From IMG/VR virus record IMGVR_UViG_3300024308_000304: DNA of 64,000 nt; one strand, written 5' to 3'. Positions within the stretch are counted from its first letter, which is position 1. The number at the start of each line of letters is the position of its first letter. The stretch is from an uncultured virus (IMG/VR IMGVR_UViG_3300024308_000304). Taxonomy: Duplodnaviria; Heunggongvirae; Uroviricota; Caudoviricetes. A program made the position numbers and the translations under genes. Positions 37,211 through 52,670 of this stretch are shown piece by piece. The notes under the pieces were generated by a model. That model did not search any database. It was not told where the DNA came from and was given only the letters and a program-made list of their open reading frames with translations.

Positions 37211-37245
37211 ATTATAGCCTCAATAAATGTAACCATTCTAATATT

Positions 37246-37321: not shown

Positions 37322-37347
37322 ATATGACGAAGGATATCAGATTAAAA

Positions 37348-37971: not shown

Positions 37972-38075
37972 TCAATTGCCAAATAATATCAAAAAGACTC
38001 AAAAAATGCAAATAAATTAAACATTGCATTGATGTGGTATTTATAATATAATAATGCCAAAATGAGGTCATAAAA

Positions 38076-38435
38076 ATGAACGAAAGAAAAATTGTAACCT
38101 GCTGTCTCCTTTTCATGATTATTCTTGGATTTGCTGCTATCATACAGCTTACTATTTTTAGAAATGAGAAATCACTATTCGTAAATGAAAACTTTACTAT
38201 TGTTGGAAGTTATAAAAACACGCTACCTAAATATTCTACAAAAAATGTTGTGAAACTGAGAAGAGATTCAAATAAGGACGAATTTGTCGTATATTTACAA
38301 GATGACTGTAAGCCTTATCCAGACAATAAAACTATAGATTTAACTGTAAGAGTTGACTCACAACAAATACTTTTCTGGAGAGTTAATTCATATTATTTAC
38401 CATTTGGTACTATTTGTATGCCAAAAAGAAAATGA
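38076..38435 (+). CDS. Single-TM hypothetical protein
   Basis: 119 aa with GAGG SD and an N-terminal TM. Confidence 0.65.
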   Translation: MNERKIVTCCLLFMIILGFAAIIQLTIFRNEKSLFVNENFTIVGSYKNTLPKYSTKNVVKLRRDSNKDEFVVYLQDDCKPYPDNKTIDLTVRVDSQQILFWRVNSYYLPFGTICMPKRK

Positions 38436-38442
38436 CAGCTAA

Positions 38443-39258
38443 TCAAATAGCTGTCATAACCAATACTTCTAATTCTTTCTCATTCATGTCAAATAGTTTT
38501 ACACCAATTTCTCTCTGATAATCAATAATTTTATCAATATGAACAACAGTGTCATCTATTTGAAATGTCATATCAAAAATATTAAATACTAAACTTTTTT
38601 TGTTTGAATAGATCAAAAATTTTCTTAAAAAATGAATGCTTGGTTCATCTAATTTATATTTGGCTTTATCAATTCCATTTGACACTTCAAAAATATAGTA
38701 TTTTTTTGAAAGAAAAGGTAATAAACATTTAGATAAATTATTCAAATCAAGATCAAGTGTTAAAAAACTTTTCCAATTAAGAACAGATACAGAATATGGC
38801 TGATTTGAACTTTTTGTAATCAAATGTGGAAATGTACATAATTTATAGAAAAACCATGTAAGTAAAGGAATAAATCCAGAATAGGCCACTATAATTAAAC
38901 ATACAAAAATTGAAAAATCTGTAATTATTGGAGATTCAATGTTATATTTGTTGTAACAAAGTATAGTAAAAGCAGAAAGAGAAGAAAACTTAAGATACAA
39001 ATCAGCATTACTTATATAAGAATAAGATATAATTCGATCTTTCAGTCTATATAAAAAAAATAAGAATGGAATTAGGAGTAATACAAATAAAACAGCCACT
39101 GTTATTAAATCATCTATTTGATATCTGTTATAATTAATATAAATAGAACAAGCCATTATAAACGGATAATAAATAGAATTAAATAATCCTAAAGCACTCT
39201 TAGTTAAAAACATAACATATACTCCTTTAAGTCGTTGGATTGTATCATTTTCAAACAT
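38443..39258 (-). CDS. 4-TM membrane protein, MxxI family
   Basis: Ends KLFDMNEKELEVLVMTAI. Confidence 0.75.
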   Translation of the reverse strand: MFENDTIQRLKGVYVMFLTKSALGLFNSIYYPFIMACSIYINYNRYQIDDLITVAVLFVLLLIPFLFFLYRLKDRIISYSYISNADLYLKFSSLSAFTILCYNKYNIESPIITDFSIFVCLIIVAYSGFIPLLTWFFYKLCTFPHLITKSSNQPYSVSVLNWKSFLTLDLDLNNLSKCLLPFLSKKYYIFEVSNGIDKAKYKLDEPSIHFLRKFLIYSNKKSLVFNIFDMTFQIDDTVVHIDKIIDYQREIGVKLFDMNEKELEVLVMTAI

Positions 39259-39396
39259 AAAATCAATCTTTTTTTTGTATATTTAACACTCAAAATATTA
39301 AGACCACCGGGCAGTAAAAATAATAATCAGTCGCATTAAACTTGAATTTTTGATTAAATATGCTATTGTTACTACAACCAACTAACAGGAGGCTTT

Positions 39397-39690
39397 ATGA
39401 AAAATAAATTAATGATCATAGCAGCAATGTCAGTTATTCCATTCTTCGCAATGGCTCAATCAACAACTAATCCAACCACTACACCATCTAACGAGAACAT
39501 CCAAAATCCAGCTAATGGCAATACTACTGATGGAATGAATAATGGTTCTGGTACATTAAATAATGAGATGCCAAAAACTAATAGACCAGATGTTGATCAA
39601 CGTCAACACAATAACATGGATAAAATGCATAAATACGACGATACAAAAGATAAAATACATGATACAGACACCACAAAAGATGATAGTTAA
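39397..39690 (+). CDS. Small exported low-complexity (N/T/D-rich) protein
   Basis: Signal peptide ...FFAMA|Q; AGGAGG SD; own promoter and terminator. Confidence 0.7.
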   Translation: MKNKLMIIAAMSVIPFFAMAQSTTNPTTTPSNENIQNPANGNTTDGMNNGSGTLNNEMPKTNRPDVDQRQHNNMDKMHKYDDTKDKIHDTDTTKDDS

Positions 39691-39714
39691 AAATAAAGGC
39701 AGTTTCAAACTGCC

Positions 39715-40437
39715 TTAAATTTGCATCATTTTTAAAACATCTAATTCGTTATCATCCATATCAAACAAAAACTTTTTAAACTCTTGTTGAAGTGAATATA
39801 TGCTTTCATGTGTGATCAACTTATCATCAATTATAAACATAAGTTTTGAATAGCTAACAGTCAAGAAACTATTGCCAGACAATACCATATATGATATGTT
39901 TTTGTAATCTATATTGTTTGTGTTTTCAACAATATAAAATTTTTTATTAGTATATCTTATAATCAAATTCATTAATAAAAAATAATCGAACCCCAAAAGG
40001 TTGTTTTCATCTGTATTAACATGTTTATTATTTGCTTTAACAAGCTGATTAGCTCTCTCAATAATAGACATTGTATTTTTAAAGAAATCATACAGAATGA
40101 CCACTTGAGAGAAAATTGAAAAAAAGAATAAATATTCAAATAAATTTAATATAAAATCATTATCATAATCTATAGATATTAAAATATAATAAAAGAATAC
40201 AATAATTAATGGAATTAATTTAAATACAATATCTCTTTTTAAAAAATAAGCATTTTTGATAATATTCAAGTATAATCCATTCATCCAAAGAATAACTGGA
40301 ATTAATGAAAGTCCTCCTATTATAACAGATAAAATAATAAAAACTTTCAAGTTAATATCAAGACACAAAAATACAAAAAAATAAAATGTAACATAAAAGA
40401 AAGCGTTAACTGTAGAGATAGCTAAATATTTAAACAT
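39715..40437 (-). CDS. 4-TM membrane protein, MxxI family
   Basis: Ends FLFDMDDNELDVLKMMQI. Confidence 0.75.
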   Translation of the reverse strand: MFKYLAISTVNAFFYVTFYFFVFLCLDINLKVFIILSVIIGGLSLIPVILWMNGLYLNIIKNAYFLKRDIVFKLIPLIIVFFYYILISIDYDNDFILNLFEYLFFFSIFSQVVILYDFFKNTMSIIERANQLVKANNKHVNTDENNLLGFDYFLLMNLIIRYTNKKFYIVENTNNIDYKNISYMVLSGNSFLTVSYSKLMFIIDDKLITHESIYSLQQEFKKFLFDMDDNELDVLKMMQI

Positions 40438-40438
40438 A

Positions 40439-41185
40439 TTAAATACTCCACATTTTTATAGTTTCTAATTCTTGGTCATTCATTTCAAAAAGTTTTTTAC
40501 TATATTCAGATTGGAAATGATTGATGTCTTTTTCATCAATAAGACAACCATCAATAACAAAACTTTCTTTTATATAATTAAATAATATTATTTTATTGTT
40601 TGAATATATCTTAAATTCAATATTACTTTCGTCTTTAGGTAACTTTTCACGAATAATATAATATTCATTATTGGTATAATTTTTAATATAATCCCGCAAA
40701 GCATCAAAATTAAAAAGAAAACCGCCGTAAGTAGAAAAGTCTTGTTTTTTGTTTTTGTGAATAACATCTAACTTATTTGCAAGATTTAATTTTTTATTAA
40801 ACATGAAAAGGAAATAAAAAAATTTAACAAAAACACACAACAACAATACAGAACCAACTTTTTTAAGAGTCGATTCATCTACAATCATTTGTCCTTGATT
40901 TTTGTAATGAACAACAATAAAAATAAAGCTTACAGATAAAAGTAATAAACATTTTATTAGTCCATCAAATAATGATAAATGTGCATCAATGATCACCTTA
41001 TTAGAAAAAGCAAAATACCATCTTAAAATAGGATATGAACATAATGTAACAACCAGTAAAATATTCAACAATGATATATAAGAACCATCAAAGCATTGAA
41101 TAAGAATGACTCCCCAAAAAATTAAGTTAAAAAAAGCATTGAAGGTTGAAAGTGCTATATATCGTTTCATATCTAAATACTCCAC
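40439..41185 (-). CDS. 4-TM membrane protein, MxxI family
   Basis: Ends KKLFEMNDQELETIKMWSI. Confidence 0.75.
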   Translation of the reverse strand: MEYLDMKRYIALSTFNAFFNLIFWGVILIQCFDGSYISLLNILLVVTLCSYPILRWYFAFSNKVIIDAHLSLFDGLIKCLLLLSVSFIFIVVHYKNQGQMIVDESTLKKVGSVLLLCVFVKFFYFLFMFNKKLNLANKLDVIHKNKKQDFSTYGGFLFNFDALRDYIKNYTNNEYYIIREKLPKDESNIEFKIYSNNKIILFNYIKESFVIDGCLIDEKDINHFQSEYSKKLFEMNDQELETIKMWSI

Positions 41186-41844
41186 ATTGTAATAACGTCT
41201 AATTCATATTGGCTCATATCAAATAACTTCTTTTTATAGTCTTCTTGAAATTGTAAAACTGTATTTTTAGTAATAATATTATTATCCATAATAAAATTGT
41301 TTTCTTTACAATTGAAAGAATAAGTTTTATCTGATGAGCTAATATCAAAAATGCCATCTTTACTTTGTTTACAATCGTAAATGTAATAAGGTTTAGAGGT
41401 GAATAGTTCCAAAGTAGTATTTAATTCTTTCCAATCATAACCATATAAGTGAAAAGTATATACATTATCAACAACTTTATAAATTCCCGTAGTGGTTGTA
41501 AAAAAAATAAACATGAACATTTCAAAAGAAATAATTAACATAATATAGAAATTAGCAATAGAAACTATGAATTTTTGATGTTCGTATATAATAAAAGATA
41601 AAATCATTAAAAATATAGGACCAATCTTGTAAAAAACATCCTTCAAAGATAAATAAGAATGAAAAACACAATTATTTCTAAGATTAAAAATAAAACGAGC
41701 TATTGGAATTAATGTAAGACTAAGAAAACACATTGCAGTAATAATAAATTCAGTAGATTCTTTATAGGTTAAAACAATATTAAATAATAAAAATACTAAA
41801 TAAAAAAATGAATTAAAAATTGAAATGGAAACTCTTTTTATCAT
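41173..41844 (-). CDS. 4-TM membrane protein, MxxI family
   Basis: Ends KKLFDMSQYELDVITMWSI. Confidence 0.75.
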   Translation of the reverse strand: MIKRVSISIFNSFFYLVFLLFNIVLTYKESTEFIITAMCFLSLTLIPIARFIFNLRNNCVFHSYLSLKDVFYKIGPIFLMILSFIIYEHQKFIVSIANFYIMLIISFEMFMFIFFTTTTGIYKVVDNVYTFHLYGYDWKELNTTLELFTSKPYYIYDCKQSKDGIFDISSSDKTYSFNCKENNFIMDNNIITKNTVLQFQEDYKKKLFDMSQYELDVITMWSI

Positions 41845-41855
41845 GAACTACTCCC

Positions 41856-42479
41856 TTAAATTGACATCATAGAAATTACTTCTATATCACTATCATTTAA
41901 ATCTTTTAGCTTTTTATTATTTTCTTTTAAATAAGAATAGATATCAAAATTACTCAATGAGATGCCTTGATATTTTGTATAATTTCTTCCAAATATAAAA
42001 TTGTGCTTGTTAAGAAATTTATCCCCATTGAAACAAACAGACACATATTCGGCTTTTTCACCAGTCATGATTCTAATGTTTTCCATTTGCGTGTCCAATC
42101 CAACATAAGCTGTCTTAATAGCTGCAAGACAAGGTAATGCCAGTAAAAAACAAAACGTTGAAGGAATTATTAACATAGAACCAATGATTCGTTCATTATG
42201 ATATTCTGGATTGTAATTATCACCGAAATAAATCATTAAGGCCGGAACAAATATAAGTATAAGCATAGGCGAGAGTATAAGTAACATCATAGGTCCTACT
42301 TTATAAACTATATGTTGAGCATAAGCTTTAAGCATTACATGTGCAGTAAAAACAAAAACACAAAGATTAGAAATGATAAGGAGCCTTGATTCAGAAATAA
42401 ATGAAGCAAAGACTAGAGAAATTGAAGGAATAATAAAAATAAAAAAGATTATATTCTTTGTAAAAAAATCTTTATTCAT
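41856..42479 (-). CDS. 4-TM membrane protein, MxxI family
   Basis: Ends KLKDLNDSDIEVISMMSI. Confidence 0.75.
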   Translation of the reverse strand: MNKDFFTKNIIFFIFIIPSISLVFASFISESRLLIISNLCVFVFTAHVMLKAYAQHIVYKVGPMMLLILSPMLILIFVPALMIYFGDNYNPEYHNERIIGSMLIIPSTFCFLLALPCLAAIKTAYVGLDTQMENIRIMTGEKAEYVSVCFNGDKFLNKHNFIFGRNYTKYQGISLSNFDIYSYLKENNKKLKDLNDSDIEVISMMSI

Positions 42480-42571
42480 AATTTGTCAATTCTCCATGTA
42501 GAACTCAGATTATACAGTATTTACAATGTTTTATCAATTATTTTATTTGAAATACTCTATAAAATATAAAT

Positions 42572-42600
42572 AAAAAAAAGAGAACTTTGATAGTTCTCTT
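42572..42600 (-). terminator. Intrinsic terminator closing the tRNA array
   Basis: AAGAGAACT-atcaa-AGTTCTC followed by T8 on the minus strand, just after the last tRNA. Confidence 0.8.
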
Positions 42601-42608
42601 TATTTATT

Positions 42609-42683
42609 TGGTGGTCCTGCAAGGAATCGAACCTTGATCGATCCGTTATGAGCGGACAGCATTAGCCATTATGCTACAAGACC
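42609..42683 (-). tRNA. tRNA with CAT anticodon (Ile2 or elongator Met)
   Basis: GGTCTTG/CAGGACC-A-CCA; loop CT-CAT-AA; T arm CAAGG-TTCGATT-CCTTG. Confidence 0.85.
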
Positions 42684-42688
42684 AAATA

Positions 42689-42765
42689 TGGTGGACCGTG
42701 ACGGGATTCGAACCCGTGACCTCTTGAATGCCATTCAAGCGTTCTCCAAACTGAACTACACGCCC
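42689..42765 (-). tRNA. tRNA-Ala(GGC), one-nt bulge in acceptor 3' strand
   Basis: G3:U70; loop AT-GGC-AT; encoded CCA. Confidence 0.85.
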
Positions 42766-42769
42766 GTAA

Positions 42770-42852
42770 TAAGTCAATCGTAATTACCGCTATACGACCA
42801 CGAAATCTTTTGAATTCCGCAGATTGGTGCTGACCCAATGTCTATTGACTTA
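42770..42852 (-). ncRNA. Circularly permuted tRNA-like RNA (YrlA/Y-RNA-like architecture)
   Basis: 5' TAAGTCAAT-agac-[ATTGG gtcagca CCAAT]-[CTGCGGAAT tcaaaag ATTTCGTGG]-tc-[GTA tagcggtaat TAC]-g-ATTGACTTA 3'. Confidence 0.7.
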
Positions 42853-42854
42853 AC

Positions 42855-42953
42855 TTGTTAACAGAACTAGGACTTGAACCTAGCCAATCGCCGCTGAACC
42901 CGAGACAATCTATCCTTTCTGTGAGGCGATTCCAACGTTGTCTCTTTCTGTTA
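42855..42953 (-). ncRNA. tRNA-like RNA with canonical T arm and expanded anticodon loop
   Basis: Terminal stem TAACAGAA/TTCTGTTA then ACAA; T arm CTAGG-TTCAAGT-CCTAG; AATCGCC/GGCGATT stem around a ~32-nt loop. Confidence 0.6.
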
Positions 42954-42955
42954 TC

Positions 42956-43031
42956 TGGCATCCGTAACAGGACTCGAACCTGTATATTCCGCTTAGGAGG
43001 CAGACGCTCTGTCCTGTTGAGCTATACGGAT
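42956..43031 (-). tRNA. tRNA-Arg(CCT)
   Basis: ATCCGTA/TACGGAT-G-CCA; loop CT-CCT-AA. Confidence 0.9.
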
Positions 43032-43037
43032 ATAAAA

Positions 43038-43571
43038 TCATTTAAAATCAATAAATGAAAGTTCAAGTGCCGTGAGTTTTGATTTAATTGATGCAATTAC
43101 ATCATTTCTGATCAATGCTCTTTCTTTAGCTTTCTTTTTATCTGCTTCTCTTTTTTTAGAAGCTTTTTCTTTTCTTTTATCAATTTCTTGCTTTACTGAC
43201 TCAATTGTATTTAAAACTTCTGTTTCAAAATCTTCATAAATAAACCTTGAAGGAAACTTGTTAAAATAAACATCAATTACTTTATTTCTATATTCAAGTT
43301 CATCAATATCGCTATAAAAACTTACAAATTCCTGATAGCCATTATAATTGAACTCACCAAAACCATCGCATTCAAATTTTTCCAAATCAACAGTATCAAA
43401 TGTTGCCCATCTATATTTCAAAGCTAACAATTCAGCTATTTTATCAAAAACATATATAGACCTTGAAACAATACGTTCAAGAATATCATTGCTTTCTTTT
43501 ATAGTTCTAAAATCTGCTTTTGCATTAATATATTCATCTTTAGTTAAAGGTGCAACATAAGCAATAGACAT
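43038..43571 (-). CDS. Hypothetical protein embedded in the tRNA array
   Basis: 177 aa with AGGA SD; basic coiled-coil near the C-terminus. Confidence 0.75.
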   Translation of the reverse strand: MSIAYVAPLTKDEYINAKADFRTIKESNDILERIVSRSIYVFDKIAELLALKYRWATFDTVDLEKFECDGFGEFNYNGYQEFVSFYSDIDELEYRNKVIDVYFNKFPSRFIYEDFETEVLNTIESVKQEIDKRKEKASKKREADKKKAKERALIRNDVIASIKSKLTALELSFIDFK

Positions 43572-43599
43572 ATTTTAAATCCTATAATTGAAAAAGATT

Positions 43600-43758
43600 G
43601 ATGGATAAGTCGCACGATTTTGTTAGCTACTCCCTCAAGGGGTCTGGTTCCAAAATTGTTGAAAAATCAACACCGCTTATACTGAGCAGTGTAGTCACTC
43701 AGCCGTCCGCACTTAGGTCTTACTACACAGATTATCTAAGCAATCGTCTTACGCCATC
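43600..43758 (-). ncRNA. Unidentified structured ncRNA (~160 nt) in the tRNA array
   Basis: GC-rich relative to its surroundings; ends pair (GATGG-C-GTAAG/CTTATCCATC; ACGATT/AATCGT; TTAG/CTAA); internal stems. Confidence 0.55.
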
Positions 43759-43764
43759 TTTATT

Positions 43765-43841
43765 TGGTGGGCCTTGTAGGACTTGAACCTACGACCTATC
43801 GATTATGAGTCGAACGCTCTAACCAACTGAGCTAAAGGCCC
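43765..43841 (-). tRNA. tRNA with CAT anticodon, probably Ile2 (reads AUA after lysidine modification)
   Basis: GGGCCTT/AAGGCCC-A-CCA; CGA-CTCATAA-TCG; Ile2-like body; lacks the initiator GGG/CCC anticodon stem. Confidence 0.85.
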
Positions 43842-43858
43842 TTCATGTATCTAAAATA

Positions 43859-43935
43859 TGGTGGGACTTGTAAGACTTGAACTTACGACCTACCGATTAT
43901 GAGTCGGTTGCTCTAACCATCTGAGCTAAAATCCC
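43859..43935 (-). tRNA. tRNA with CAT anticodon, probably Ile2
   Basis: GGGATTT/AAGTCCC-A-CCA; ACCGA-CTCATAA-TCGGT. Confidence 0.85.
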
Positions 43936-44002
43936 ATAAAGACTGAACATCCCCGCAACACGATTTCAATCACTTCCAACCTATAACGTTGGACCTCCGA
44001 AT

Positions 44003-44078
44003 TGGCATCCCCAGTAGGACTCGAACCTACAACCTGTAGCTTAGAAGGCCACCGCTCTTCCAGTTGAGCTATGAGGAC
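44003..44078 (-). tRNA. tRNA-Arg(TCT)
   Basis: GTCCTCA/TGGGGAT-G-CCA; loop CT-TCT-AA. Confidence 0.9.
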
Positions 44079-44094
44079 ATTGTAACTATATAAC

Positions 44095-44169
44095 TGGTGG
44101 ACCAACAGGGAATCGAACCCTGAACTCCTGCGTGCAAGGCAGGGATTTTCCCGATTAAACTATCAGCCC
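44095..44169 (-). tRNA. tRNA-Ala(TGC)
   Basis: G3:U70; CCTGC-CTTGCAC-GCAGG; encoded CCA. Confidence 0.9.
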
Positions 44170-44175
44170 ATAAAT

Positions 44176-44246
44176 CTGTTTTAGTGCGTGAGTTACACGA
44201 CCTCTGGGTATCGCCCAGTATTCTACTTTAAACTACAACTAAACAG
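44176..44246 (-). ncRNA. Shrunken tRNA-like element or pseudo-tRNA
   Basis: Paired ends; D-like TAGTTTAAAGTAGAATA; CTGGG-cgata-CCCAG; aggt; CGTG-taact-CACG; no CCA. Confidence 0.5.
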
Positions 44247-44259
44247 TAACTTTTATATC

Positions 44260-44336
44260 TGGTGGATACAGATGGGATTTGAACCCATGACATCCTGCGT
44301 GCAAAGCAGGCGTTCTCCCAACTGAACTACTGACCC
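44260..44336 (-). tRNA. tRNA-Ala(TGC), one-nt bulge in acceptor 3' strand
   Basis: GGGTCAG/CTGTATCC-A-CCA; loop TT-TGC-AC. Confidence 0.85.
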
Positions 44337-44343
44337 ATTAATT

Positions 44344-44416
44344 TGGTGGAGCCTGTAAGTTTCGACCTTACAACTTCGATTAAATCGCAATTTTACGATA
44401 GTTAAACTAAAGCCCC
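44344..44416 (-). ncRNA. Ala-acceptor tRNA-like RNA with truncated anticodon arm
   Basis: GGGGCTT/AGGCTCC-A-CCA with G3:U70; anticodon arm reduced to CGAT-tta-ATCG; T loop GTCGAAA. Confidence 0.7.
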
Positions 44417-44422
44417 ATAATT

Positions 44423-44499
44423 TGGCGTCTACGGTAGGATTCGAACCTACGACCATCCGCTTAGAAGGCGGATGCTCTATCCAACTGAGCTACGCAGAC
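44423..44499 (-). tRNA. tRNA-Arg(TCT)
   Basis: GTCTGCG/CGTAGAC-G-CCA; TCCGC-CTTCTAA-GCGGA. Confidence 0.92.
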
Positions 44500-44514
44500 A
44501 TTTTAATAACAAAT

Positions 44515-44589
44515 TGGTGGACCTACAGAGAATCGAACTCTGAACTTCTGCGTGCAAGGCAGATATTTTCCCAATTAAACTATAAGCCC
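44515..44589 (-). tRNA. tRNA-Ala(TGC)
   Basis: GGGCTTA/TAGGTCC-A-CCA; loop CT-TGC-AC. Confidence 0.9.
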
Positions 44590-44600
44590 ATTTAATTATC

Positions 44601-44676
44601 TGGTGGAGCAAGTGGGATTCGAACCCACGACCTCTTGAATGCCATTCAAGTATTCTGCCAACTGAACTATTACCCC
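44601..44676 (-). tRNA. tRNA-Ala(GGC)
   Basis: GGGGTAA/TTGCTCC-A-CCA; CTTGA-ATGGCAT-TCAAG. Confidence 0.92.
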
Positions 44677-44682
44677 ATAATT

Positions 44683-44758
44683 TGGTGGAGCTATGTAGAC
44701 TCGAACTACATTCTCTACTCGGCAAGAGTAGTGTTTTGCCACTTAAACTAAAAGCCCC
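44683..44758 (-). tRNA. tRNA-Ala(TGC), atypical loop 3' side (C37 G38)
   Basis: GGGGCTT/TAGCTCC-A-CCA; CTACT-CTTGCCG-AGTAG. Confidence 0.8.
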
Positions 44759-44765
44759 TTAAAAC

Positions 44766-44843
44766 TGGTGGAGACAAAGAGAATCGAACTCTTCACAGTC
44801 TGCGTGCAAGGCAAACTCGCCGGCCCATGGAACATGTGCCCCC
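44766..44843 (-). tRNA. tRNA-Ala(TGC), non-canonical D arm (C8)
   Basis: GGGGGCA/TGTCTCC-A-CCA; TTTGC-CTTGCAC-GCAGA; weakly paired D region. Confidence 0.8.
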
Positions 44844-44900
44844 ATAACTTGTTTCTATATAGTGAGTTTTTTATTTACTTCCTTACTCTCTATGTTGTAC

Positions 44901-44929
44901 ATATTACCAAGCGAAAAACACTTTGTCAA
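44901..44929 (-). promoter_or_regulatory. Sigma70-type promoter immediately upstream of the tRNA array
   Basis: TTGACA-17 nt-TAATAT on the minus strand. Confidence 0.7.
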
Positions 44930-45021
44930 CTACTTTTTTAAATTATTTTTAAAATATTTTACTTTAAAATCAATGAATTGCAATACATATGGTTGAACAG
45001 TATCCTACCATTTTCGGGCAT

Positions 45022-45056
45022 AAAAAAACCTTTGAGATTTTACCCTCAAAGGCTTT
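45022..45056 (-). terminator. Attenuator terminator
   Basis: AGCCTTTGAG-ggtaaaat-CTCAAAGG followed by T7. Confidence 0.85.
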
Positions 45057-45115
45057 CAACATTCGTTCGCCAGAGGGTTTAGCATGTGCTAATCCCTCTC
45101 AATGAGATTAGCTCA

Positions 45116-45157
45116 CTAAGATATCGCTCTGGCTCTTATAATTAATTGAATGTTCAT
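45116..45157 (-). CDS. 13-aa leader peptide MNIQLIIRARAIS
   Basis: AGGA SD; ATG AAC ATT CAA TTA ATT ATA AGA GCC AGA GCG ATA TCT TAG, followed by TGA. Confidence 0.8.
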   Translation of the reverse strand: MNIQLIIRARAIS

Positions 45158-45185
45158 AAAATAAATTCCTATCTAATGTATGAGT

Positions 45186-45214
45186 ATTATAAAAGGTTTT
45201 AATTTAAAAGTCAA
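45186..45214 (-). promoter_or_regulatory. Sigma70-type promoter of the leader transcript
   Basis: TTGACT-17 nt-TATAAT on the minus strand. Confidence 0.8.
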
Positions 45215-45259
45215 TCTAATGTAAAAAAATAAAAAAGAGCTATCAGGCTCTTTTTATAA

Positions 45260-46000
45260 TTATTTAAAACTTAATATGATTGAACCAACGTTTTGATTAT
45301 CCGTACAGGAGCTTTTATTAAATGCTTCTGACAAAGGATTAACACCATTAACATCCATTTTTGAAAATTCAGTGTATAATGGGCTGTCTTTATCAGCAAG
45401 TGAAATACAGAATGGTGTAAAATAGCCAACATAAAGAAGAGAATCAGGTTCACCTTTTTTAATAACAGACACAGTGCTATCTTTTTCTTTAGATATTGTT
45501 GTATAAATAATTCCGGGTATTTTTTTCTTCATATTAATACATTCTGATGTATTATTTTGTTCACACTTGCCATCTTGAATCATTTTTTTTATTTCAATGA
45601 GATTTGAAGATATAAAATCAACATTTGCATTTTTATAATATCGGTTACCAGTAAAGAATATAGCTGTCATAATAATAACTAAAGCAGTTAATATTAAAAG
45701 TAACTTATTAGTTAAAAAATGACCTGTTTTATCAACAATATCTTTAACGACATATCTTCTGAAAAAATTATATCCTGTACAAATAATCACAAAAGCAAAA
45801 GCAATAAATTGCATAGTTCTAAAAGCTTCAAAAAAGCTAATATAATTATCTCTTTGTCCATTTAGCAAAGCATTAAATGTGTAATTTTCAATAAAGATTG
45901 GTAAAAATGCTAGTGAAATTATTAATATTGGAACAATAGACACAATACCAGTCACTATTTTCCTATCATGCTGTAAAACAAAAGAACTCAATTTACTCAT
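45260..46000 (-). CDS. 3-TM protein with C-terminal Cys-containing, possibly pilin-like (PilS-type) domain
   Basis: Three TM helices; PFCISLA..VNG..SSC..IILSFK. Confidence 0.6.
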   Translation of the reverse strand: MSKLSSFVLQHDRKIVTGIVSIVPILIISLAFLPIFIENYTFNALLNGQRDNYISFFEAFRTMQFIAFAFVIICTGYNFFRRYVVKDIVDKTGHFLTNKLLLILTALVIIMTAIFFTGNRYYKNANVDFISSNLIEIKKMIQDGKCEQNNTSECINMKKKIPGIIYTTISKEKDSTVSVIKKGEPDSLLYVGYFTPFCISLADKDSPLYTEFSKMDVNGVNPLSEAFNKSSCTDNQNVGSIILSFK

Positions 46001-46115
46001 TTCTGATTCTCCTTTAGGTGAATAAATCCTATCTAAATGATATCATAAGAATAATGTAGATCAATTAAAAAACACTTAAAATAAAAAAATGTTTAAATTA
46101 AATCTTTTTTGAAAG

Positions 46116-46763
46116 CTAAATATTAAGTATAAACATTGGAGTAACCTTGAATTCGGCTTTGAGCTTACAATTTGAAACATTGCGAACACATTCCATCTTA
46201 TTTAAACGATTATTATTGTCATCAATTAATGTATAAGATTGAGTCCCCAACATATTTGTGTTCACTTGACTCTGTAATAACGTGTACAATTTAACCATCA
46301 AAGATTTATCTGTTGAATAAGTTTGTTTGGGTAAAGTAAAAATAAATGAAACAGAAGTGATTCTACCAAACTTTTCTTTTATTACAGGATCAACCTTAAA
46401 TCCATAAGGAACTTTTGATTTCCAAAGATCGCAAGGTAATAATAAAATGTTTTCACCGTTCTTTGGTTGCCAGCCATGTTCTTTATCACCGCATTCTTGA
46501 TCACTCGAAATAAAACTTTGTTTAATTGCTGTTCCAAAATTAGGTGCTGATAGTTGTTCTTTCAATTTATTTTCATCGAGGACATCAATAGTAACTCTTT
46601 TATCTACTGCTGATAATAAAGCAACAATATTTTGAGCAAACAATTCTTGTAATTCTTTTTCTTTGGCTTCTGAAAGATATTGCATAAATCCAAGTGATAC
46701 AATACATAAAACAGTGATAGACAGCAATGCTTCAATTAATGATAATCCTGAGTTTTTAATCAT
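46116..46763 (-). CDS. Type IV prepilin-like protein
   Basis: Class III signal MIKNSG|LSLIEALLSITVLCIV (Gly at -1, Glu at +5). Confidence 0.75.
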   Translation of the reverse strand: MIKNSGLSLIEALLSITVLCIVSLGFMQYLSEAKEKELQELFAQNIVALLSAVDKRVTIDVLDENKLKEQLSAPNFGTAIKQSFISSDQECGDKEHGWQPKNGENILLLPCDLWKSKVPYGFKVDPVIKEKFGRITSVSFIFTLPKQTYSTDKSLMVKLYTLLQSQVNTNMLGTQSYTLIDDNNNRLNKMECVRNVSNCKLKAEFKVTPMFILNI

Positions 46764-46845
46764 AACAATAAAGGAATTAGTATTTTAATGTTAGCAGGTA
46801 TTTGAAAAAAATCAATGTTACAAGAAAAGACCAGAAGGTCTTTAA

Positions 46846-47379
46846 TTATTTGAATATACCAGCGTCTTTCCAGACTTGATAACGCTTCTCTATTTCTTTG
46901 GAATAGGAATTATCTTTTTTATTACACATAGCATAGGCATTTTCACCACTATCTAATACTGGAACCTGATAATCCCAAGTTCTATCTTCACAATCAATAG
47001 TAGATCCCAATAAGTAAAGTCTTCTCATGTCTGGCTGATCGTAACCAAAATAAGGACGGCATTCAAATGTTAAAGATTGTTTTTCATGTTGAACCGTAAA
47101 TAAGTTTGTTCTTGGACTATATTTAGTAAATGCAGTACATGGAGAGGTTTCTGCTCTGTAATCATATTCATTAAAAAGACGGCGAGTACCATCAGCGTTA
47201 AAATCAGCCTGAACATACATCGTTCTAAGATATATCTTTGTTTCGTTAGTTGACCATTTCAAACTACCTAATGTTGGTTCTTTCTCTACATGACTTGCAA
47301 AATGATTTTGCACTGTTGAACAGCCAGATGCTAATACTGCAAAGCATAATGCTGAAATAGTTTTTAGTTTTAAGGACAT
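46846..47379 (-). CDS. Lipoprotein
   Basis: Lipobox LASG|C. Confidence 0.75.
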   Translation of the reverse strand: MSLKLKTISALCFAVLASGCSTVQNHFASHVEKEPTLGSLKWSTNETKIYLRTMYVQADFNADGTRRLFNEYDYRAETSPCTAFTKYSPRTNLFTVQHEKQSLTFECRPYFGYDQPDMRRLYLLGSTIDCEDRTWDYQVPVLDSGENAYAMCNKKDNSYSKEIEKRYQVWKDAGIFK

Positions 47380-47427
47380 TATAATTCTCCGGTTTTATAA
47401 TAAATATTAACTTTTACTCATTATAAG

Positions 47428-48129
47428 TCAATAGAGGTACATTTCCAAGGTGCTTAATTCATTTTCTGTCAAATTGACTATATTTGTATGTGGATAAAAT
47501 GTTTCCAACGTAGACTCTAAGGTTTGTTGACTGCATTTTCTTTCATCATTAATGAAAACATTACCCGGATATACTTTGAAATTAGCAAATTCAAAATAAA
47601 AATTATCATAGCCAAAATCATATACAAAGTTCAAATTTTTATAAACAGTATTCCTATAATTTCTATTAAAAATATCTTTTTTGAAATACTCATTACTTTT
47701 TCTCTTATTTATAATCTTGTAGATTAAGTTCACAACAGGAATATTGTTTCTAAAAAATATAAAAAACAAATCAATAAAGAATATTGCATAAGCCAAATGA
47801 TTCAAAGATAATCTAATATACTTATCAAATTCAAAATAACGAGAAAGGCTGCTGAAGATAATGGTGACAAAAATAGTTGTTAAAAATATAAGAGAGCTAT
47901 ATTTATTTCCTTTTATAATATAAATAGGTTTAGAAACTCCCATTACATAACTGGAACTGTTCATGTAGTGATAAAATGGAATAAAAAATATAGGTACAAT
48001 TAAACTGACAAAAATTGAACCATTAATAAGAGTTGTAATGAAAATAATAAAAAGTTTAAAAAAATAAAAATCGTTCCCCATTAACTGAGAAACGATTCTT
48101 TTTGATGAATGAATAAAGTTATTCACCAT
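47428..48129 (-). CDS. Membrane protein, MxxY C-terminal-tag family
   Basis: TM helices; ends NLTENELSTLEMYLY. Confidence 0.7.
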   Translation of the reverse strand: MVNNFIHSSKRIVSQLMGNDFYFFKLFIIFITTLINGSIFVSLIVPIFFIPFYHYMNSSSYVMGVSKPIYIIKGNKYSSLIFLTTIFVTIIFSSLSRYFEFDKYIRLSLNHLAYAIFFIDLFFIFFRNNIPVVNLIYKIINKRKSNEYFKKDIFNRNYRNTVYKNLNFVYDFGYDNFYFEFANFKVYPGNVFINDERKCSQQTLESTLETFYPHTNIVNLTENELSTLEMYLY

Positions 48130-48739
48130 TTTTTATTTTTACTTCAACCAGACCAGCATTTGTATCCATACCAACAATAGGAAGAACACTGTTCACTGAA
48201 TGAATAATCTTTTCAGATGGAACGCCTTTGCTGAGTAAATAGTTTGTTAAAACCCTTGCTCTTGCTTCAACAACATTGAAATTAGGATCTTTATATTCAC
48301 CTGCTGATTGATAAACAGAAACTGTGAATGTACTAAACTCTTGATCCAATAGATTAATAGCGATTTTGTTTAAAGTATTGTAGGCATAAATAGTTGGTTG
48401 AATAGAGTTACCACCATAACCAAATACATCTACAGTTGGTATATAGATGTAAAGGTCATTACCATTTTTTACAATAGAAGCTGTGCTTTCTGCTAAATCT
48501 TTTCTAAACTCATCTTCTTGTTTTTTCAAGTAGACTGGATCTTTCACTTTACTATTGTTATCAACAACTGGAACAGACTCCACAATAACAGGCTGAGCAT
48601 CTGTTTGTGTCGTATTAACAACGGGTGTATTAATAGTTTCAACAAAAGATCCTTCCGAGAAGCCATCAGTTGTTTTGTATACAGTGTTACAACCACTGCA
48701 TACAATCATTGCAATTAGTAATGAGAGTTTAGTTTTCAC
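48119..48739 (-). CDS. Divergent OmpA C-terminal-like lipoprotein
   Basis: Lipobox VCSG|C; VEARARVLTNYLLSKGV; GTG start. Confidence 0.7.
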   Translation of the reverse strand: MKTKLSLLIAMIVCSGCNTVYKTTDGFSEGSFVETINTPVVNTTQTDAQPVIVESVPVVDNNSKVKDPVYLKKQEDEFRKDLAESTASIVKNGNDLYIYIPTVDVFGYGGNSIQPTIYAYNTLNKIAINLLDQEFSTFTVSVYQSAGEYKDPNFNVVEARARVLTNYLLSKGVPSEKIIHSVNSVLPIVGMDTNAGLVEVKIKNGE

Positions 48740-48741
48740 GA

Positions 48742-49392
48742 TTATTGCCCCTGTGCGTTAATTATCTGTATTTCAACACGACGGTTAGCTTGTTTACCAG
48801 ATTCAGTTGAGTTATCGGCAATTGGTTGTCTTGGGCCATAGCCAACAGCTTGAATTCTGGTTGGGCTTATACCTTGTGCAATCAAATAATTGGCAACGGA
48901 TGAAGCTCGTTGTTCTGAGAGATATTGGTTCTTTTCAAAACTACCAGTATTATCTGTGTGACCAACTACTACAATAGTGCTTTTATTGTATTCTTTCAAT
49001 GTTGTTGCAATAGAGTTAAGGGTTGGGTAGAAACCAGAAGATAGATTTGCATTTGCTGAATCAAATGTAATGTTACCCGGCATTATAAGATGTAGGTTCT
49101 CACCTTCACGTTGTACTTGAACACCAGTACCTTGAAGCTGCTCTCTCAATTTCTTTTCTTGAACATCAGTGTAATAACCATAACCTGCACCGGCTGCACC
49201 ACCAACGGCTGCACCAATCAATGCACCTTTTTTACCACCTGCTAAAGCACCAACGGCTGCACCACCAAGAGCACCAAAACCACCATATTTTGCAGATTTT
49301 GCTGCTTGGCTTTCACCAGTGTAAGGATTTTGTGTACAACCTGTAACTAAAAGTGCTGCTGCGAGTGCTGATATAATAAATGTCTTTTTCAT
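48742..49392 (-). CDS. OmpA-family lipoprotein with glycine zipper (YiaD-like)
   Basis: LVTG|C; GAAVGALAGG repeats; GHTDNTG, LSEQRA, NRRVEI; start at ATG 49392 (AGGAG SD). Confidence 0.9.
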   Translation of the reverse strand: MKKTFIISALAAALLVTGCTQNPYTGESQAAKSAKYGGFGALGGAAVGALAGGKKGALIGAAVGGAAGAGYGYYTDVQEKKLREQLQGTGVQVQREGENLHLIMPGNITFDSANANLSSGFYPTLNSIATTLKEYNKSTIVVVGHTDNTGSFEKNQYLSEQRASSVANYLIAQGISPTRIQAVGYGPRQPIADNSTESGKQANRRVEIQIINAQGQ

Positions 49393-49408
49393 AGTTGCTC
49401 CTATATTG

Positions 49409-49960
49409 TTAATTATTTTGTAACTCATTTTCAATGTCTATTTCTACTCTTCTATTTTTGCGTCTATTTTCTTCCGTTTCGTTATCATATAACGGTTGTT
49501 TGGAAGCAACACCAAAATAAGTAATGTTTGTTTCTTTGATACCTTTTTTCACAAAATAGTCTTTAATAGCAAAAGCCTTATCTGACGTTTTGTTTATATT
49601 ATCAAAATAATTCCCTTGATTGTCCGAATGGACTATAATTCTAACTTTACTGAGATCACTTAACAAAGCAGTGCTCGCAATATTATTGAGCTTCCTTTCA
49701 AAATCTTTTTTTATGATACTCGAATTTTGTTCAAATACAAGATCATCTTGAATTGTTAACAGCACACTTGAACTGTTGCGATCAACACTTAAACCATCAG
49801 AAGCTAATTCCTGATGAAATTTATTATAAATGTAGCTTGAAAACATTTCTGGTTTTATTTGCCCTGCTGATATATATGATTCATTATTCATTACAATATC
49901 ATTAGAAACACAACCTTGAATCAAAACAGCCACTCCCAAAATTAAAATCTTTTTAAACAT
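49409..49960 (-). CDS. OmpA C-terminal-like lipoprotein
   Basis: LIQG|C; VHSDNQG; NRRKNRRVEI; start at ATG 49960 (GGAGG SD). Confidence 0.8.
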   Translation of the reverse strand: MFKKILILGVAVLIQGCVSNDIVMNNESYISAGQIKPEMFSSYIYNKFHQELASDGLSVDRNSSSVLLTIQDDLVFEQNSSIIKKDFERKLNNIASTALLSDLSKVRIIVHSDNQGNYFDNINKTSDKAFAIKDYFVKKGIKETNITYFGVASKQPLYDNETEENRRKNRRVEIDIENELQNN

Positions 49961-49970
49961 ATTACCTCCA

Positions 49971-50567
49971 TTAACAGACTTTACCACCATGTTTATGTGG
50001 TCTATTTACATTATAAGCATGTTTGATAGATAGTAATTTTTCTATATCCCACTGCTTTAAATAAAATATTCTTGCTATTTTAACAATAGTATCAGATAAA
50101 TGCAAGAAAATTGTTCCTTCATCTTTACCGTCTAAATAGGACTTTCCAGCCTGAGCAATAGAAATGCTGACAGACAGTTGATATTCTAAATCATCATGAA
50201 CATTTTCTAATTCCTGATAACATTTAATATTATTCAAATCAGATACTGCATGCATCAAATCTTTCAATGTTTCAATCTTATTGTATTCAACAAAAAAACG
50301 CTGGTTAATTAGGCTTGCTAAATCAATTTCACAATAGCCAGAGTAATCAAATATTCTTATTAAGACATCAATTAACTCTATTGATTGTCCTTCTGGCTTA
50401 TCACCCACCATATAGAAATCATCTTTAGCTGATCTAAACTCTTCTGTTGCCTCTGATACTTCACTTAGCATCAACTGAAAACGCTCTGTTGCTTTTGTTG
50501 CTCTTTCATAGAACCCTTTATTAACAGCATTCTGATATGCCTGTGAAACACATGCTTGAATTTTCAT
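49971..50567 (-). CDS. MazG-like nucleotide pyrophosphohydrolase
   Basis: SEVSEATEEFR, ELIDVLIRIFD, KHAYNVNRPHKHGGK. Confidence 0.8.
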   Translation of the reverse strand: MKIQACVSQAYQNAVNKGFYERATKATERFQLMLSEVSEATEEFRSAKDDFYMVGDKPEGQSIELIDVLIRIFDYSGYCEIDLASLINQRFFVEYNKIETLKDLMHAVSDLNNIKCYQELENVHDDLEYQLSVSISIAQAGKSYLDGKDEGTIFLHLSDTIVKIARIFYLKQWDIEKLLSIKHAYNVNRPHKHGGKVC

Positions 50568-50690
50568 TGTAAATCCTCTTTTTATTCAAAATAATGTACA
50601 ACCTGTTCATTATTTGTCAAATTTGAAGACTACTGTTTGACTATGATTATTTTTTATTATATAATAGTTAATCAAAATATAGGTATTGAA

Positions 50691-51380
50691 ATGAGCAAAT
50701 TATTCATTAAATCACTGACAGTTAGCCCTGATTGGGAGGATGAAGAAGTTAATTATACTATGCATTCTGTTTTGAAGAATGAAAAGGATAATTTTCAAGA
50801 TGGTATTATTGCAACTAATTCTTATAAAAGTAAACTGTTTGGCAAAGCCTATGTTGTAGAATTCAACAAAAAAAAACATGAAGAATTTGAAAATCATATA
50901 GTTGAAATTAATAATACAAATCAGAAGATACATGATGCAAGATTCTTTTATATTAAGTTACTTGAACAATTAAAAATAATTGATAAAGAGTATTGTGAAG
51001 ATTTACTGGCTATTGATTTAACTGTTCCTGTATTTTCAATTTTTATGGGAAATAAAAATCATTCACTACTTTGTAAAAATGAATATGTTTTTTTTGAAGA
51101 CATAGGTAAAATTTTGCATGGATTAAAAATTGAGTTTAATGTATATACTTATAAATTTTTCATTACTATTTTTGATTATGATGGATTAGAAGTCATACAA
51201 TTACTAAATAATGCAAAATATTTAGGTAAAATGGATAACATAGAAGAAATTCTTAAAAAATTGATGACAGATAAACTTGCACAGAAATACACAAAAGAGC
51301 TTGGATATAAAGTAACAGAAGAAGACATTGAAGAAAGAGTTGATGATTTCAATGCACTAATTGAAATGCGGAGAATATGA
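50691..51380 (+). CDS. Hypothetical protein, MxxI family
   Basis: AGGT SD before ATG 50691; ends DDFNALIEMRRI. Confidence 0.7.
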   Translation: MSKLFIKSLTVSPDWEDEEVNYTMHSVLKNEKDNFQDGIIATNSYKSKLFGKAYVVEFNKKKHEEFENHIVEINNTNQKIHDARFFYIKLLEQLKIIDKEYCEDLLAIDLTVPVFSIFMGNKNHSLLCKNEYVFFEDIGKILHGLKIEFNVYTYKFFITIFDYDGLEVIQLLNNAKYLGKMDNIEEILKKLMTDKLAQKYTKELGYKVTEEDIEERVDDFNALIEMRRI

Positions 51381-52472
51381 ATGTATACAATAAATTTTGA
51401 AAAATACGCCAGCAAAGATGAGTTTTTTAATGTAAGCAGTAGGCCAAAGCCAGGGTCAGAGTTGGAAGCTTTTTTTGAATACTCAAAATCTTTATTTTTA
51501 AAGTCATTTGATTATGCAGAAGATAAACTAACATTACAAAGAAATATGAATATTTATGCTGATGAAAGACATATTATAATTAATTCTTATTATCAAAAGA
51601 AAATGTCCTTACTTGAATTAGGTAAATTGGCAGCAGCAGGCGATCCAGCGGCTCACAAACGTGGTGAAATTTTCAATTTTAGCATGAGATTTTCAAAAAA
51701 TTACAGTAAATTTCCAACATCTAAAATATATGGATTTAAAGAAAATTTAGAACAAGCTCCCAATATTTTACTGTCAAAAGAGAAATTTAAGGAAAGTTAC
51801 AAATCGGATTTAATTCCAGAATATAACTATTCAATCGACATAACTGGTAATGGCTCTGAATCTTTACACAAAAAGTACAACATTGTGTATGAAGAAAAAA
51901 TAAACCCAATTGCAAATTTCTGTATAGATGAAATAATAAATATCTTTTCAAAGTATGGTGAAGTAACAGAAAGAAAACGTAAGAATAAATATCTTGATGG
52001 AGAAAATAATACAATTCGTTCATTCTTTATAAAAAATACAATTTGCTTTAATTTTGAGATACACCAAACAAAAGAATACCGAATAAATAAAGCTGGTAAT
52101 ATTTCACCCTGTTTAAAAATTACATGTAAATTAGATCAATCAGAACTAACATCCAAACAGATACGAAAAAAAGATGGAACTTTTGAATCTAAAGAATATT
52201 ACATTCCGTATATGGGTAAAAATTGTAAACATTTTTCAGTTGAAGTACGTGAATTTGATTTCTTAAAAACACCAAACTATTATGCTATTTCAATGACACC
52301 ACATGGTTATTTAAGATTGAAGAAAACATATTCAAAAGATTTTTTCAAAAAAATTATATTCCATTATCAATTTAAAAAATATTTTGAAAAGTATGAAGTA
52401 GAGATGAACTTTGAAGAATTAGAAGAAGATCCACAAGTATTTTTTGATCTTGTTTCTATGCTTCAATTTTGA
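51381..52472 (+). CDS. Hypothetical protein, MxxF family
   Basis: 363 aa; ends QVFFDLVSMLQF. Confidence 0.75.
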   Translation: MYTINFEKYASKDEFFNVSSRPKPGSELEAFFEYSKSLFLKSFDYAEDKLTLQRNMNIYADERHIIINSYYQKKMSLLELGKLAAAGDPAAHKRGEIFNFSMRFSKNYSKFPTSKIYGFKENLEQAPNILLSKEKFKESYKSDLIPEYNYSIDITGNGSESLHKKYNIVYEEKINPIANFCIDEIINIFSKYGEVTERKRKNKYLDGENNTIRSFFIKNTICFNFEIHQTKEYRINKAGNISPCLKITCKLDQSELTSKQIRKKDGTFESKEYYIPYMGKNCKHFSVEVREFDFLKTPNYYAISMTPHGYLRLKKTYSKDFFKKIIFHYQFKKYFEKYEVEMNFEELEEDPQVFFDLVSMLQF

Positions 52473-52512
52473 TTGACAAAAATGAAATAATATGATTAAA
52501 TAAGTAAATTAT

Positions 52513-52670
52513 TAGGAGATTTCACCATGTAAAACAAATATACACGCTAACATAATGACGAACGCATTAAAAGACAACCGTCCAACATCAGATAGCTATC
52601 TGTGTAAACGTCTGTCCAAAACTAAAACGCCAGTTAATATGTTGGTTAATATTTGTTTATGGAGAAATTT
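52513..52670 (+). promoter_or_regulatory. 5' leader with SD-led start-stop minigene (ATG TAA at 52527-52532)
   Basis: TAGGAGATTTCACC-ATG-TAA downstream of TTGACA (52473); hairpin CAGATAG/CTATCTG; CCAACAT/ATGTTGG complement. Confidence 0.5.

Follow-up and report, generated by a model that had tools for sequence, protein, structure and literature searches.

The stretch of DNA analyzed here (hereafter, the window) comprises 64,000 nucleotides (nt) of an uncultured member of the Caudoviricetes, recorded in IMG/VR as IMGVR_UViG_3300024308_000304. On its minus strand, an array of 13 transfer RNA (tRNA) genes is preceded by a short leader, and this leader contains six consecutive codons that match tRNAs of the array. 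We propose that the leader is a ribosome-mediated (leader-peptide) transcription attenuator, which would gate read-through from an upstream promoter (P1) into the tRNA genes, and we give this reading a probability of roughly 0.78. In this way, the leader would probably let the element make extra tRNAs when the matching codons are decoded slowly. Two bodies of evidence lead us to this proposal. On the one hand, P1, a Shine-Dalgarno sequence, a short open reading frame (ORF), five alternative helices (-10.9 to -16.9 kcal/mol) and a hairpin followed by seven U residues are all present. On the other hand, three tRNA arrays of the lineage carry three leaders, each written in the codons of its own array, and a fourth leader rich in threonine (Thr) codons precedes a gene for a threonine-tRNA ligase (ThrRS).

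Two IMG/VR contigs related to the window were used for comparison. G001 (437 kb) is rated 98% complete, and G002 (181 kb) carries a provirus call and is rated 58% complete. They hold syntenic relatives for 33 and 39, respectively, of the 73 window ORFs of at least 100 amino acids (aa), with identities of 30-79%. Three variants of the leader could be compared, namely that of the window, that of G002 (locus L001, identical in the metagenome contig L004) and that of a further metagenome locus, L005.

The leader and the tRNA array of the window

The promoter, the Shine-Dalgarno sequence, the ORF, the control codons and segments 1 to 6, which the original prediction had placed on the minus strand, are all found in the sequence where it had them (Table 1). 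P1 is the top-scoring of the 29 promoter-like sites that a promoter scan detected in 42000-47000, and the hairpin that follows the upstream gene would isolate this promoter from upstream transcription. Under standard wobble rules, the tRNAs reading the six control codons should be Ile2-CAU, Arg-UCU, Ala-GGC and Ala-UGC. The leader uses both GCC and GCG, which are less frequent in the window than the other alanine codons (3.5 and 1.7 per 1000, versus 19.3 for GCT and 17.1 for GCA); presumably, these two codons discriminate the Ala-GGC from the Ala-UGC isoacceptor. To estimate how rare such runs are, we used 10,835 small ORFs of 10-25 codons from G001, G002 and the window (682 kb in total). Only two of these ORFs, the window leader and its G002 homologue, contain six or more consecutive codons of the Ala/Arg/Ile2 set.

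According to ARAGORN, the array extends from 44841 to 42609 on the minus strand and includes five Ala-UGC, two Ala-GGC, two Arg-UCU, one Arg-CCU and three tRNAs with a CAU anticodon. By their anticodons, the first ten genes would be exactly the four species called for by the control codons. A weak terminator-like site and a 177-aa ORF stand between these ten genes and the last three. The CAU tRNA at 43841 is 87% identical over 77/77 nt to an Escherichia coli gene annotated as tRNA-Ile with a CAT anticodon, and the CAU tRNA at 43935 aligns closely with both; these two tRNAs resemble the Ile2 type. Two other genes of the array have unusual features. The first tRNA (44766-44841) is atypical: it scores 29.5 bits (gathering score 29), its D arm is odd and its acceptor stem has one mismatch. 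It is nevertheless conserved in G002 (156104-156179). The tRNA at 44683-44758 (156509-156583 in G002 and 3553-3627 in L005) has an alanine-type acceptor stem (G3-U70, by eye) and an anticodon loop that differs between relatives; ARAGORN reports Ala-UGC in the window and the unassignable '(tt)' and '(ta)' in the G002 and L005 copies.

Table 1. Coordinates of the leader, the internal promoter (P2) and the tRNA array in the window. MFE, minimum free energy.
Feature	Position	Strand	Remarks
Terminator-like hairpin of the upstream gene (45260-46000)	45232..45255	-	9-10 pairs, T-run on both strands
Promoter P1, TTGACT-17-TATAAT	45186..45214	-	11/12 consensus positions
Shine-Dalgarno AGGA, 9 nt 5' of the ATG (45157)	45167..45170	-	Invariant in 3/3 variants
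Leader ORF MNIQLIIRARAIS, 13 codons, TAG stop at 45118-45116	45116..45157	-	I6T in the other two variants
Control codons ATA AGA GCC AGA GCG ATA	45122..45139	-	Consecutive, within the leader ORF
Segment 1, GCCAGAG, on the control codons; pairs with CUCUGGC of segment 4	45127..45133	-	1:4, -11.3 kcal/mol
Segment 2, GCUAAUCUC; pairs with segment 3	45104..45112	-	2:3, -10.9 kcal/mol
Segment 3, GAGGGAUUAGCA; pairs with segment 2 or 4	45087..45098	-	3:4, -13.5 kcal/mol
Segment 4, UGCUAAACCCUCUGGC; pairs with segment 1, 3 or 5	45069..45084	-	4:5 antiterminator, -13.1 kcal/mol
Intrinsic terminator, segments 5 and 6: 14-pair hairpin, then U7	45022..45057	-	MFE fold; 5:6 duplex, -16.9 kcal/mol
P2 module, TTGACA-17-TAATAT with TG (hexamers 44929-44901); A/T-rich stretch upstream, AACAT(A/G)(G/A)AGAGT downstream	44885..44929	-	
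First ten tRNA genes: Ala-UGC x5, Ala-GGC x1, Arg-UCU x2, Ile2-like CAU x2	43765..44841	-	
Weak terminator-like site after the tenth tRNA, 8 pairs, tail TGATTTTTCA	43670..43692	-	Terminator scan; candidate
177-aa ORF (43571-43038), then tRNAs Arg-CCU, Ala-GGC and third CAU	42609..43571	-	
Terminator-like hairpin closing the array	42577..42601	-	Terminator scan

The folding of the leader RNA is consistent with a switch. The 171-nt transcript (from about 45185 to 45015) has a folding energy of -52.4 kcal/mol, compared with -32.0 +/- 3.5 kcal/mol for shuffled sequences (z -5.9), and none of the 200 shuffles was as good. The pairings 1:4, 2:3, 3:4, 4:5 and 5:6, which had been proposed as possible, are all borne out by their duplex energies. 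Helices 4:5, 1:4 and 3:4 share nucleotides and are mutually exclusive. A simple terminator scan did not list the hairpin at 45057-45022 in the window, and it did list the homologue of this hairpin in L001.

To model the position of the ribosome, the RNA was cut ahead of the 3' arm of the terminator and the ribosome footprint was forced to be single-stranded. In these masked folds, with no ribosome or with the A site at codons 2-4, the structure is closed by helix 1:4, with the terminator 5' arm remaining free. With the A site at codons 8-11 (5-11 in the G002 variant), helix 2:3 and the 4:5 antiterminator form, the latter by pairing of ACCCUC-U-GGC with GCC-UUU-GAGGGU. Finally, with the A site at codons 12-14, helix 3:4 forms and the terminator arm is freed. 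In the window leader, the probability that the core of the terminator 5' arm is paired upstream is 0.02 without a ribosome, 0.69 with the A site at codon 8 or 9, and 0.33 at the stop codon. Dinucleotide shuffling of nt 71-128 matched the first of these contrasts in 5 of 300 cases and both of them in 4 of 300. Constrained folding thus reproduced for the window leader the three-state switch put forward in the original prediction, except for one detail: without a ribosome, the MFE structure combines 1:4 with a hairpin at 65-89 and an inner 3:4 helix, and not with 2:3 as had been expected. It should be considered that these folds describe equilibrium, whereas attenuation is a kinetic process.

In the mechanism that we favor, transcription from P1 would start a leader RNA of about 165 nt and a ribosome would translate its 13-codon ORF. 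If the ribosome reaches the stop codon, or if none is loaded, segment 4 would be paired with segment 1 or 3; the 5:6 hairpin and its U7 tract would then form and transcription would end. A ribosome lingering on AUA AGA GCC AGA GCG AUA would instead cover segment 1, and segment 2 would pair with segment 3. Segment 4 would thereby be free to form the 4:5 antiterminator, and RNA polymerase would continue through P2 into the tRNA genes. Because each control codon is read by one tRNA species of the array, the element would measure the supply of its own encoded tRNAs, setting up a negative-feedback loop above a constitutive-looking P2. We infer that the leader ORF is translated, that termination and read-through proceed as modelled, and that the natural signal is a shortage of tRNA and not of amino acids.

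The leader is near-invariant in 3/3 variants while its flanks diverge and the neighbouring proteins are 30-79% identical. Over the 102 nt from AGGA to CUCUGGC, the window differs from G002 at three positions and from L005 at two. Codon 6 changes from ATT to ACT in both other variants, a T-to-C change falls in the 3:4 loop, and an A-to-G change in segment 3, restricted to G002, preserves the 2:3 pairing through a G-U pair and coincides with the A-A mismatch of 3:4. None of the differences in these 102 nt disrupts any proposed helix. Past CUCUGGC, the spacer and the terminator loop carry changes, and so does the terminator base, where a G-U pair becomes G-C. L001 and L005 retain the P1 hexamers, but upstream of the -35 hexamer the DNA cannot be aligned. 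Between U7 and P2, the divergence is far greater than in the leader. As the original prediction had anticipated, the ORF and the pairings are conserved: the ORF, the Shine-Dalgarno sequence and every pairing segment are retained in 3/3 variants.

Downstream of the terminator, P2 starts 93 bases past its end, ahead of the tRNA genes. A second promoter had been suspected at this site, and it proved to be real and conserved in all five copies of the module. Its hexamers and the TG are kept while the spacers vary, as expected for a promoter. The P2 module heads all three arrays of the lineage (Ala/Arg/Ile2, Leu and Ser/Tyr). Searches with its pattern matched only these three arrays among viral contigs and had no match among genome contigs. 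Since P2 is conserved in all copies, the attenuator would most likely add inducible read-through from P1 on top of a basal expression from P2.

Codon-matched leaders elsewhere in the lineage

If the control codons have been selected to match the array, leaders of arrays with other tRNAs should contain other codons. This co-variation, put forward in the original prediction, is what we observe: three arrays have three leaders, each of them rich in the codons of its own array. The second array of G002 (77614-79500, minus strand) is devoted to leucine, with 11 of its 13 tRNAs being tRNA-Leu of five anticodon types (UAG x2, UAA x3, CAA x3, CAG and AAG x2). Its leader, MFTTIRLSLLLLSSLLLSLG, contains nine Leu codons of all six kinds. 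The order of elements is P1 (TTGACT-17-TAAAAT), GAGGA, leader, hairpins, a terminator (GGACCC-CAAAA-GGGTCT followed by T7) and the P2 module. At least nine Leu codons are found in 11 of the 10,835 small ORFs, and only the Leu leader among them uses all six kinds. In G001, the six tRNAs of another array (259558-260424) are all Ser or Tyr (Ser CGA, GCU, UGA and AGA; Tyr GUA x2). The leader of this array, MKTTLMTTSYYYSYYSH, bears the run TCC TAT TAT TAT TCA TAC TAT TCT and is the only small ORF of the set with a run of at least eight Ser/Tyr codons. Here, the order is P1 (TTGAAT-17-TATAAT), AGGA, leader, terminator and P2.

The match between leaders and arrays can also be seen when each leader is read with the tRNAs of all three arrays. 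Six of the 12 codons of the window leader are readable by the Ala/Arg/Ile2 array, two by the Leu array and one by the Ser/Tyr array. For the 19 codons of the Leu leader, the corresponding counts are zero, nine and four, and for the 16 codons of the Ser/Tyr leader they are zero, one and eight. Moreover, leader and array co-occur. G001 has neither Ala nor Arg tRNAs in its sequence and no copy of the window leader (best E 0.12), and its clusters of one to three tRNAs have plain promoters only, with no leader.

The Leu and Ser/Tyr leaders were also recovered by a scan for small ORFs with a Shine-Dalgarno sequence and an ATG, followed by a hairpin and T6. When the 33 candidates were ranked by amino-acid runs, the first three places were taken by the Leu and Ser/Tyr leaders and a Thr leader (MHIVKNTTTTTTTQIEAGLVRYCR; G001, minus strand, 210168). 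The latter has seven consecutive Thr codons, a run length found in no other of the 10,835 small ORFs, as well as a terminator and a P1 recognized by eye (TTGACT-17-TAAAAT). Leader and downstream gene together span 210168-208838 in G001 (about 8841-10195, minus strand, in L042). The gene directly after the leader matches TIGR00418 thrS with 403.7 bits (cut-off 383.65), without the N-terminal part of this profile, and Pfam tRNA-synt_2b at 2.2e-43. From its sequence, the Thr leader together with this putative threonine-tRNA ligase gene would be a classical attenuator of an aminoacyl-tRNA synthetase (aaRS) gene, located on a huge phage.

Several further observations concern these leaders and arrays. 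All five attenuator terminators (window, 45028-45019; L001, L014, L015 and L042) end in T7 followed by ATG (TTTTTTTATG), which hints at a shared module or at the start of a small downstream ORF. The window and Leu leaders stop with UAG and both G001 leaders with UAA. A tRNA of G001 (375947-376020) has the anticodon CUA, labelled 'Pyl' by ARAGORN, and is a possible amber suppressor. Three tRNAs of the arrays have A at position 34, namely two Leu-AAG (G002, 78676-78759 and 79142-79225) and one Ser-AGA (G001, 260337-260424); an A at this position is uncommon in bacteria. Finally, G001 has repeated, GC-richer and structured-looking stretches of about 150-250 nt (385100-385376, 388290-388566, 381700-382065 and 375230-375850), located directly upstream of single tRNA genes (Pro, Asn and Cys) and between two Leu tRNAs. 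These stretches may be RNA elements of a new kind.

Points against the proposed attenuator and alternative readings

Several of our results weigh against the attenuator reading. The first concerns P2, a strong-looking and conserved promoter that in every array separates the terminator from the tRNA genes. Read-through from P1 may be only part of the expression of the array, or it may interfere with P2. Second, the match between leader and array is not complete. Arg-CCU, which reads AGG, is present in the array and yet no leader codon probes it. The original prediction held that the control-codon species make up 12 of the 13 tRNAs; this count holds if all three CAU tRNAs are Ile2, and the third (42683) has no E. 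coli match that would support its identity as Ile2. Third, conservation can say little about selection. The three variants are near-identical, so they offer no compensatory pair and no dN/dS test, and the single coding change (I6T) is non-synonymous. In addition, GCCAGAG is codons and stem at once, and codon choice and structure are confounded there.

The folds of the other leaders also count on this side. In the G002 variant of the window leader, the stop-codon state remains at 0.43 when the footprint is shorter. For the Leu leader, the folds predict antitermination at codons 10-18 and a structure that permits the terminator at codons 19-21; they predict antitermination at codons 2-7 as well, and also without a ribosome (0.46). 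The value for the Ser/Tyr leader is 0.65 at almost every position, codons 15-16 excepted. Taken together, the fold models support the attenuator for the window leader and are neutral for the other two: the predicted selection of the fold by the ribosome position appears clear in the window, partly consistent in the Leu leader and equivocal in the Ser/Tyr leader. As for the replicon, neither a capsid nor a terminase could be named: the matches of 35 large G001 ORFs and 25 window proteins were limited to nucleic-acid enzymes and to PHROG families of unknown function.

Among the alternatives, the one that survives best accepts the attenuator and differs in the signal, which would be the supply (charging) of amino acids or the general translation capacity, so that the array would be tied to the translational state of the cell. 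By the established logic of attenuation, a stalled ribosome cannot tell an uncharged from a missing tRNA, and in the same lineage the Thr leader stands before ThrRS, for which charging is the natural signal. Nevertheless, extra tRNA does not relieve an amino-acid shortage. Moreover, rare and isoacceptor-specific codons are written into the leaders (GCC and GCG in the window, all six Leu codons in G002), and sensing of amino acids would not require this. We therefore regard this alternative as unlikely.

Somewhat less probable still is that the stretch from P1 to U7 is a small gene in its own right, coding for a structured small RNA or a 13-residue peptide, which happens to lie beside an array transcribed from P2 only. 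A promoter and a terminator of its own, the strong fold described above, the conservation of P2 and the conservation of all codon positions at the nucleotide level would fit such a gene. However, it leaves unexplained why three unrelated leaders are written in the codons of their own arrays and why a Thr leader precedes ThrRS, and a stand-alone RNA is at odds with the lack of any Rfam family at the gathering score on the leader. The candidates of a stand-alone structured small RNA and of a decayed tRNA gene were dropped in view of the Leu and Ser/Tyr leaders and of the absence of tRNA or small-RNA family matches. A PyrR binding site (RF00515) was likewise rejected, with 23.6 bits against 54, an E-value of 0.24 and pairs of the binding hairpin marked as non-standard. 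That the locus is a chance product, whether a decayed tRNA gene or an AT-rich intergenic stretch in which a short ORF and hairpins happen to lie, is very improbable: ATA and AGA are indeed common in DNA of 27% GC (27.1 and 16.0 per 1000), but runs as long as that of the control codons are confined to the leader and its homologue, the leader is near-invariant in all its variants, and neither the tRNA model (at E up to 10) nor ARAGORN finds a tRNA in 44990-45230.

Returning to the leader-peptide attenuator, a wider role can be envisaged. Huge phages would carry isotype-sorted cassettes of spare tRNAs, each with a codon-matched leader that works as a closed-loop controller with isoacceptor resolution. 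A loss of tRNAs by host shut-off, phage-induced decay or the anticodon nucleases of defence systems would stall the matching leader and induce only that cassette. We put this forward tentatively, with the odds leaning against it. Under this closed-loop scheme, the many diverged Ala and Leu copies could, speculatively, be cleavage-resistant variants; any connection with anticodon nucleases is likewise speculation.

The phage-like element and its relation to known systems

The GC content of the window ranges from 22 to 35%. Matches to PHROG families, several of them full-length, were obtained for 9 of 25 window proteins and for 15 of the 35 large G001 proteins scanned. The latter were drawn from 44 ORFs of 420 aa or more, 41 of which lie within one locus. 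The window DNA would be part of a huge phage-like element, a label that rests on the IMG/VR listing and on these PHROG matches. When the window was compared with the DNA of known phages, only single tRNAs matched (51 records, none covering at least 80%). Known phages gave no meaningful match to the leader and no match to either flanking protein. In viral contigs, the exact leader 30-mer had no matches, a leader 21-mer matched the G002 contig only, and the 246-aa neighbour protein and a 748-aa protein had no matches. A three-sequence alignment of a 299-aa protein recovered only two viral contigs, the already known G001 and G002. Among metagenome contigs, the leader locus was found at two loci, one of them identical to that of G002. 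The contig with this identical version, L004, is 1,859,102 bases long, and the piece of 181 kb that IMG/VR calls a provirus may be a prophage in a chromosome, part of a very large replicon or an assembly artefact.

Two groups of genes near the array were also noticed. The cluster at 46116-49990 includes an ORF whose N-terminus is prepilin-like (46116-46763), another that is lipoprotein-like and three proteins with OmpA domains (Pfam OmpA, 9.8e-24, 9.6e-13 and 3.1e-4), an unusual cargo adjoining the array. In addition, the stretches 35726-42479, 47428-48129 and 50637-53468 contain ten or more paralogues of about 200-360 aa, in tandem or close to one another, with no Pfam match where tested. Nine minus-strand members of this group are membrane-protein-like, and the C-terminal motif D/E-x-E-L/I-x-V/I-I/L-x-M-M/W-x-I is common to all.

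Attenuators that respond to more than one amino acid are well established in enterobacteria, as in the thr leader (Thr and Ile codons) and the ilvGMEDA leader (Leu, Val and Ile codons), next to those of trp, his, leu and pheA. Like them, the window leader has its own promoter, a Shine-Dalgarno sequence, a short ORF with control codons for more than one amino acid and a leader RNA of about 160 nt. It also shares with them the overlapping segments, from which either an antiterminator or a terminator hairpin with a U-run would form depending on the position of the ribosome. A pheL attenuator of this enterobacterial type has been described (PMC3082878). Unlike the enterobacterial attenuators, the window leader has tRNA genes as targets, its codons correspond to individual anticodon species, the terminator is followed by a second promoter, and the replicon is huge and phage-like. 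In Rfam searches at the gathering score, the window leader matched none of His_leader, Leu_leader, Thr_leader and Trp_leader. The Ser/Tyr leader of G001 aligns with His_leader (RF00514) over positions 1-126/126, yet with 29.8 bits against a gathering score of 49 and an E-value of 0.31.

T-box riboswitches bind tRNA directly, without a ribosome, and control aaRS and amino-acid genes in Gram-positive bacteria. The window leader resembles them in that transcription attenuation would read particular tRNAs through codon-like specifiers; the Rfam search gave no T-box match on it. From the side of phage biology, phage tRNAs replace host tRNAs that are lost during infection or cut by defence nucleases, which provides a motive for keeping spares on demand. 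To our knowledge, these accounts concern the tRNAs themselves and not a leader-peptide control of their genes, and all the leader-peptide attenuators of which we know control amino-acid biosynthesis or aaRS genes. The genes downstream of the proposed window attenuator are tRNAs. In line with the original prediction, full-text literature searches, which did not cover subscription journals, found no described leader-peptide attenuator before tRNA genes. The novelty of the proposed system is, then, that leader-peptide attenuation would be aimed at tRNA genes and matched at the level of anticodon species. If this is true, it would be the first known transcriptional feedback that sets tRNA supply by directly measuring the speed of decoding. 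It also offers a testable answer to a long-standing question, namely for what reason large phages possess numerous tRNA genes, which are often redundant, and when these genes are used. The leaders are short and modular, and the correspondence between leader codons and array anticodons is a signature that can be surveyed across phage genomes.

The pheM-pheST attenuator of E. coli, in which a leader with Phe codons precedes the genes of phenylalanyl-tRNA synthetase, likewise applies attenuation to the translation machinery. The Thr leader before the thrS-like gene of G001 would be its direct analogue. Compared with pheM-pheST, the target of the window element is the tRNA itself, so that the element would sense and resupply the same molecule.

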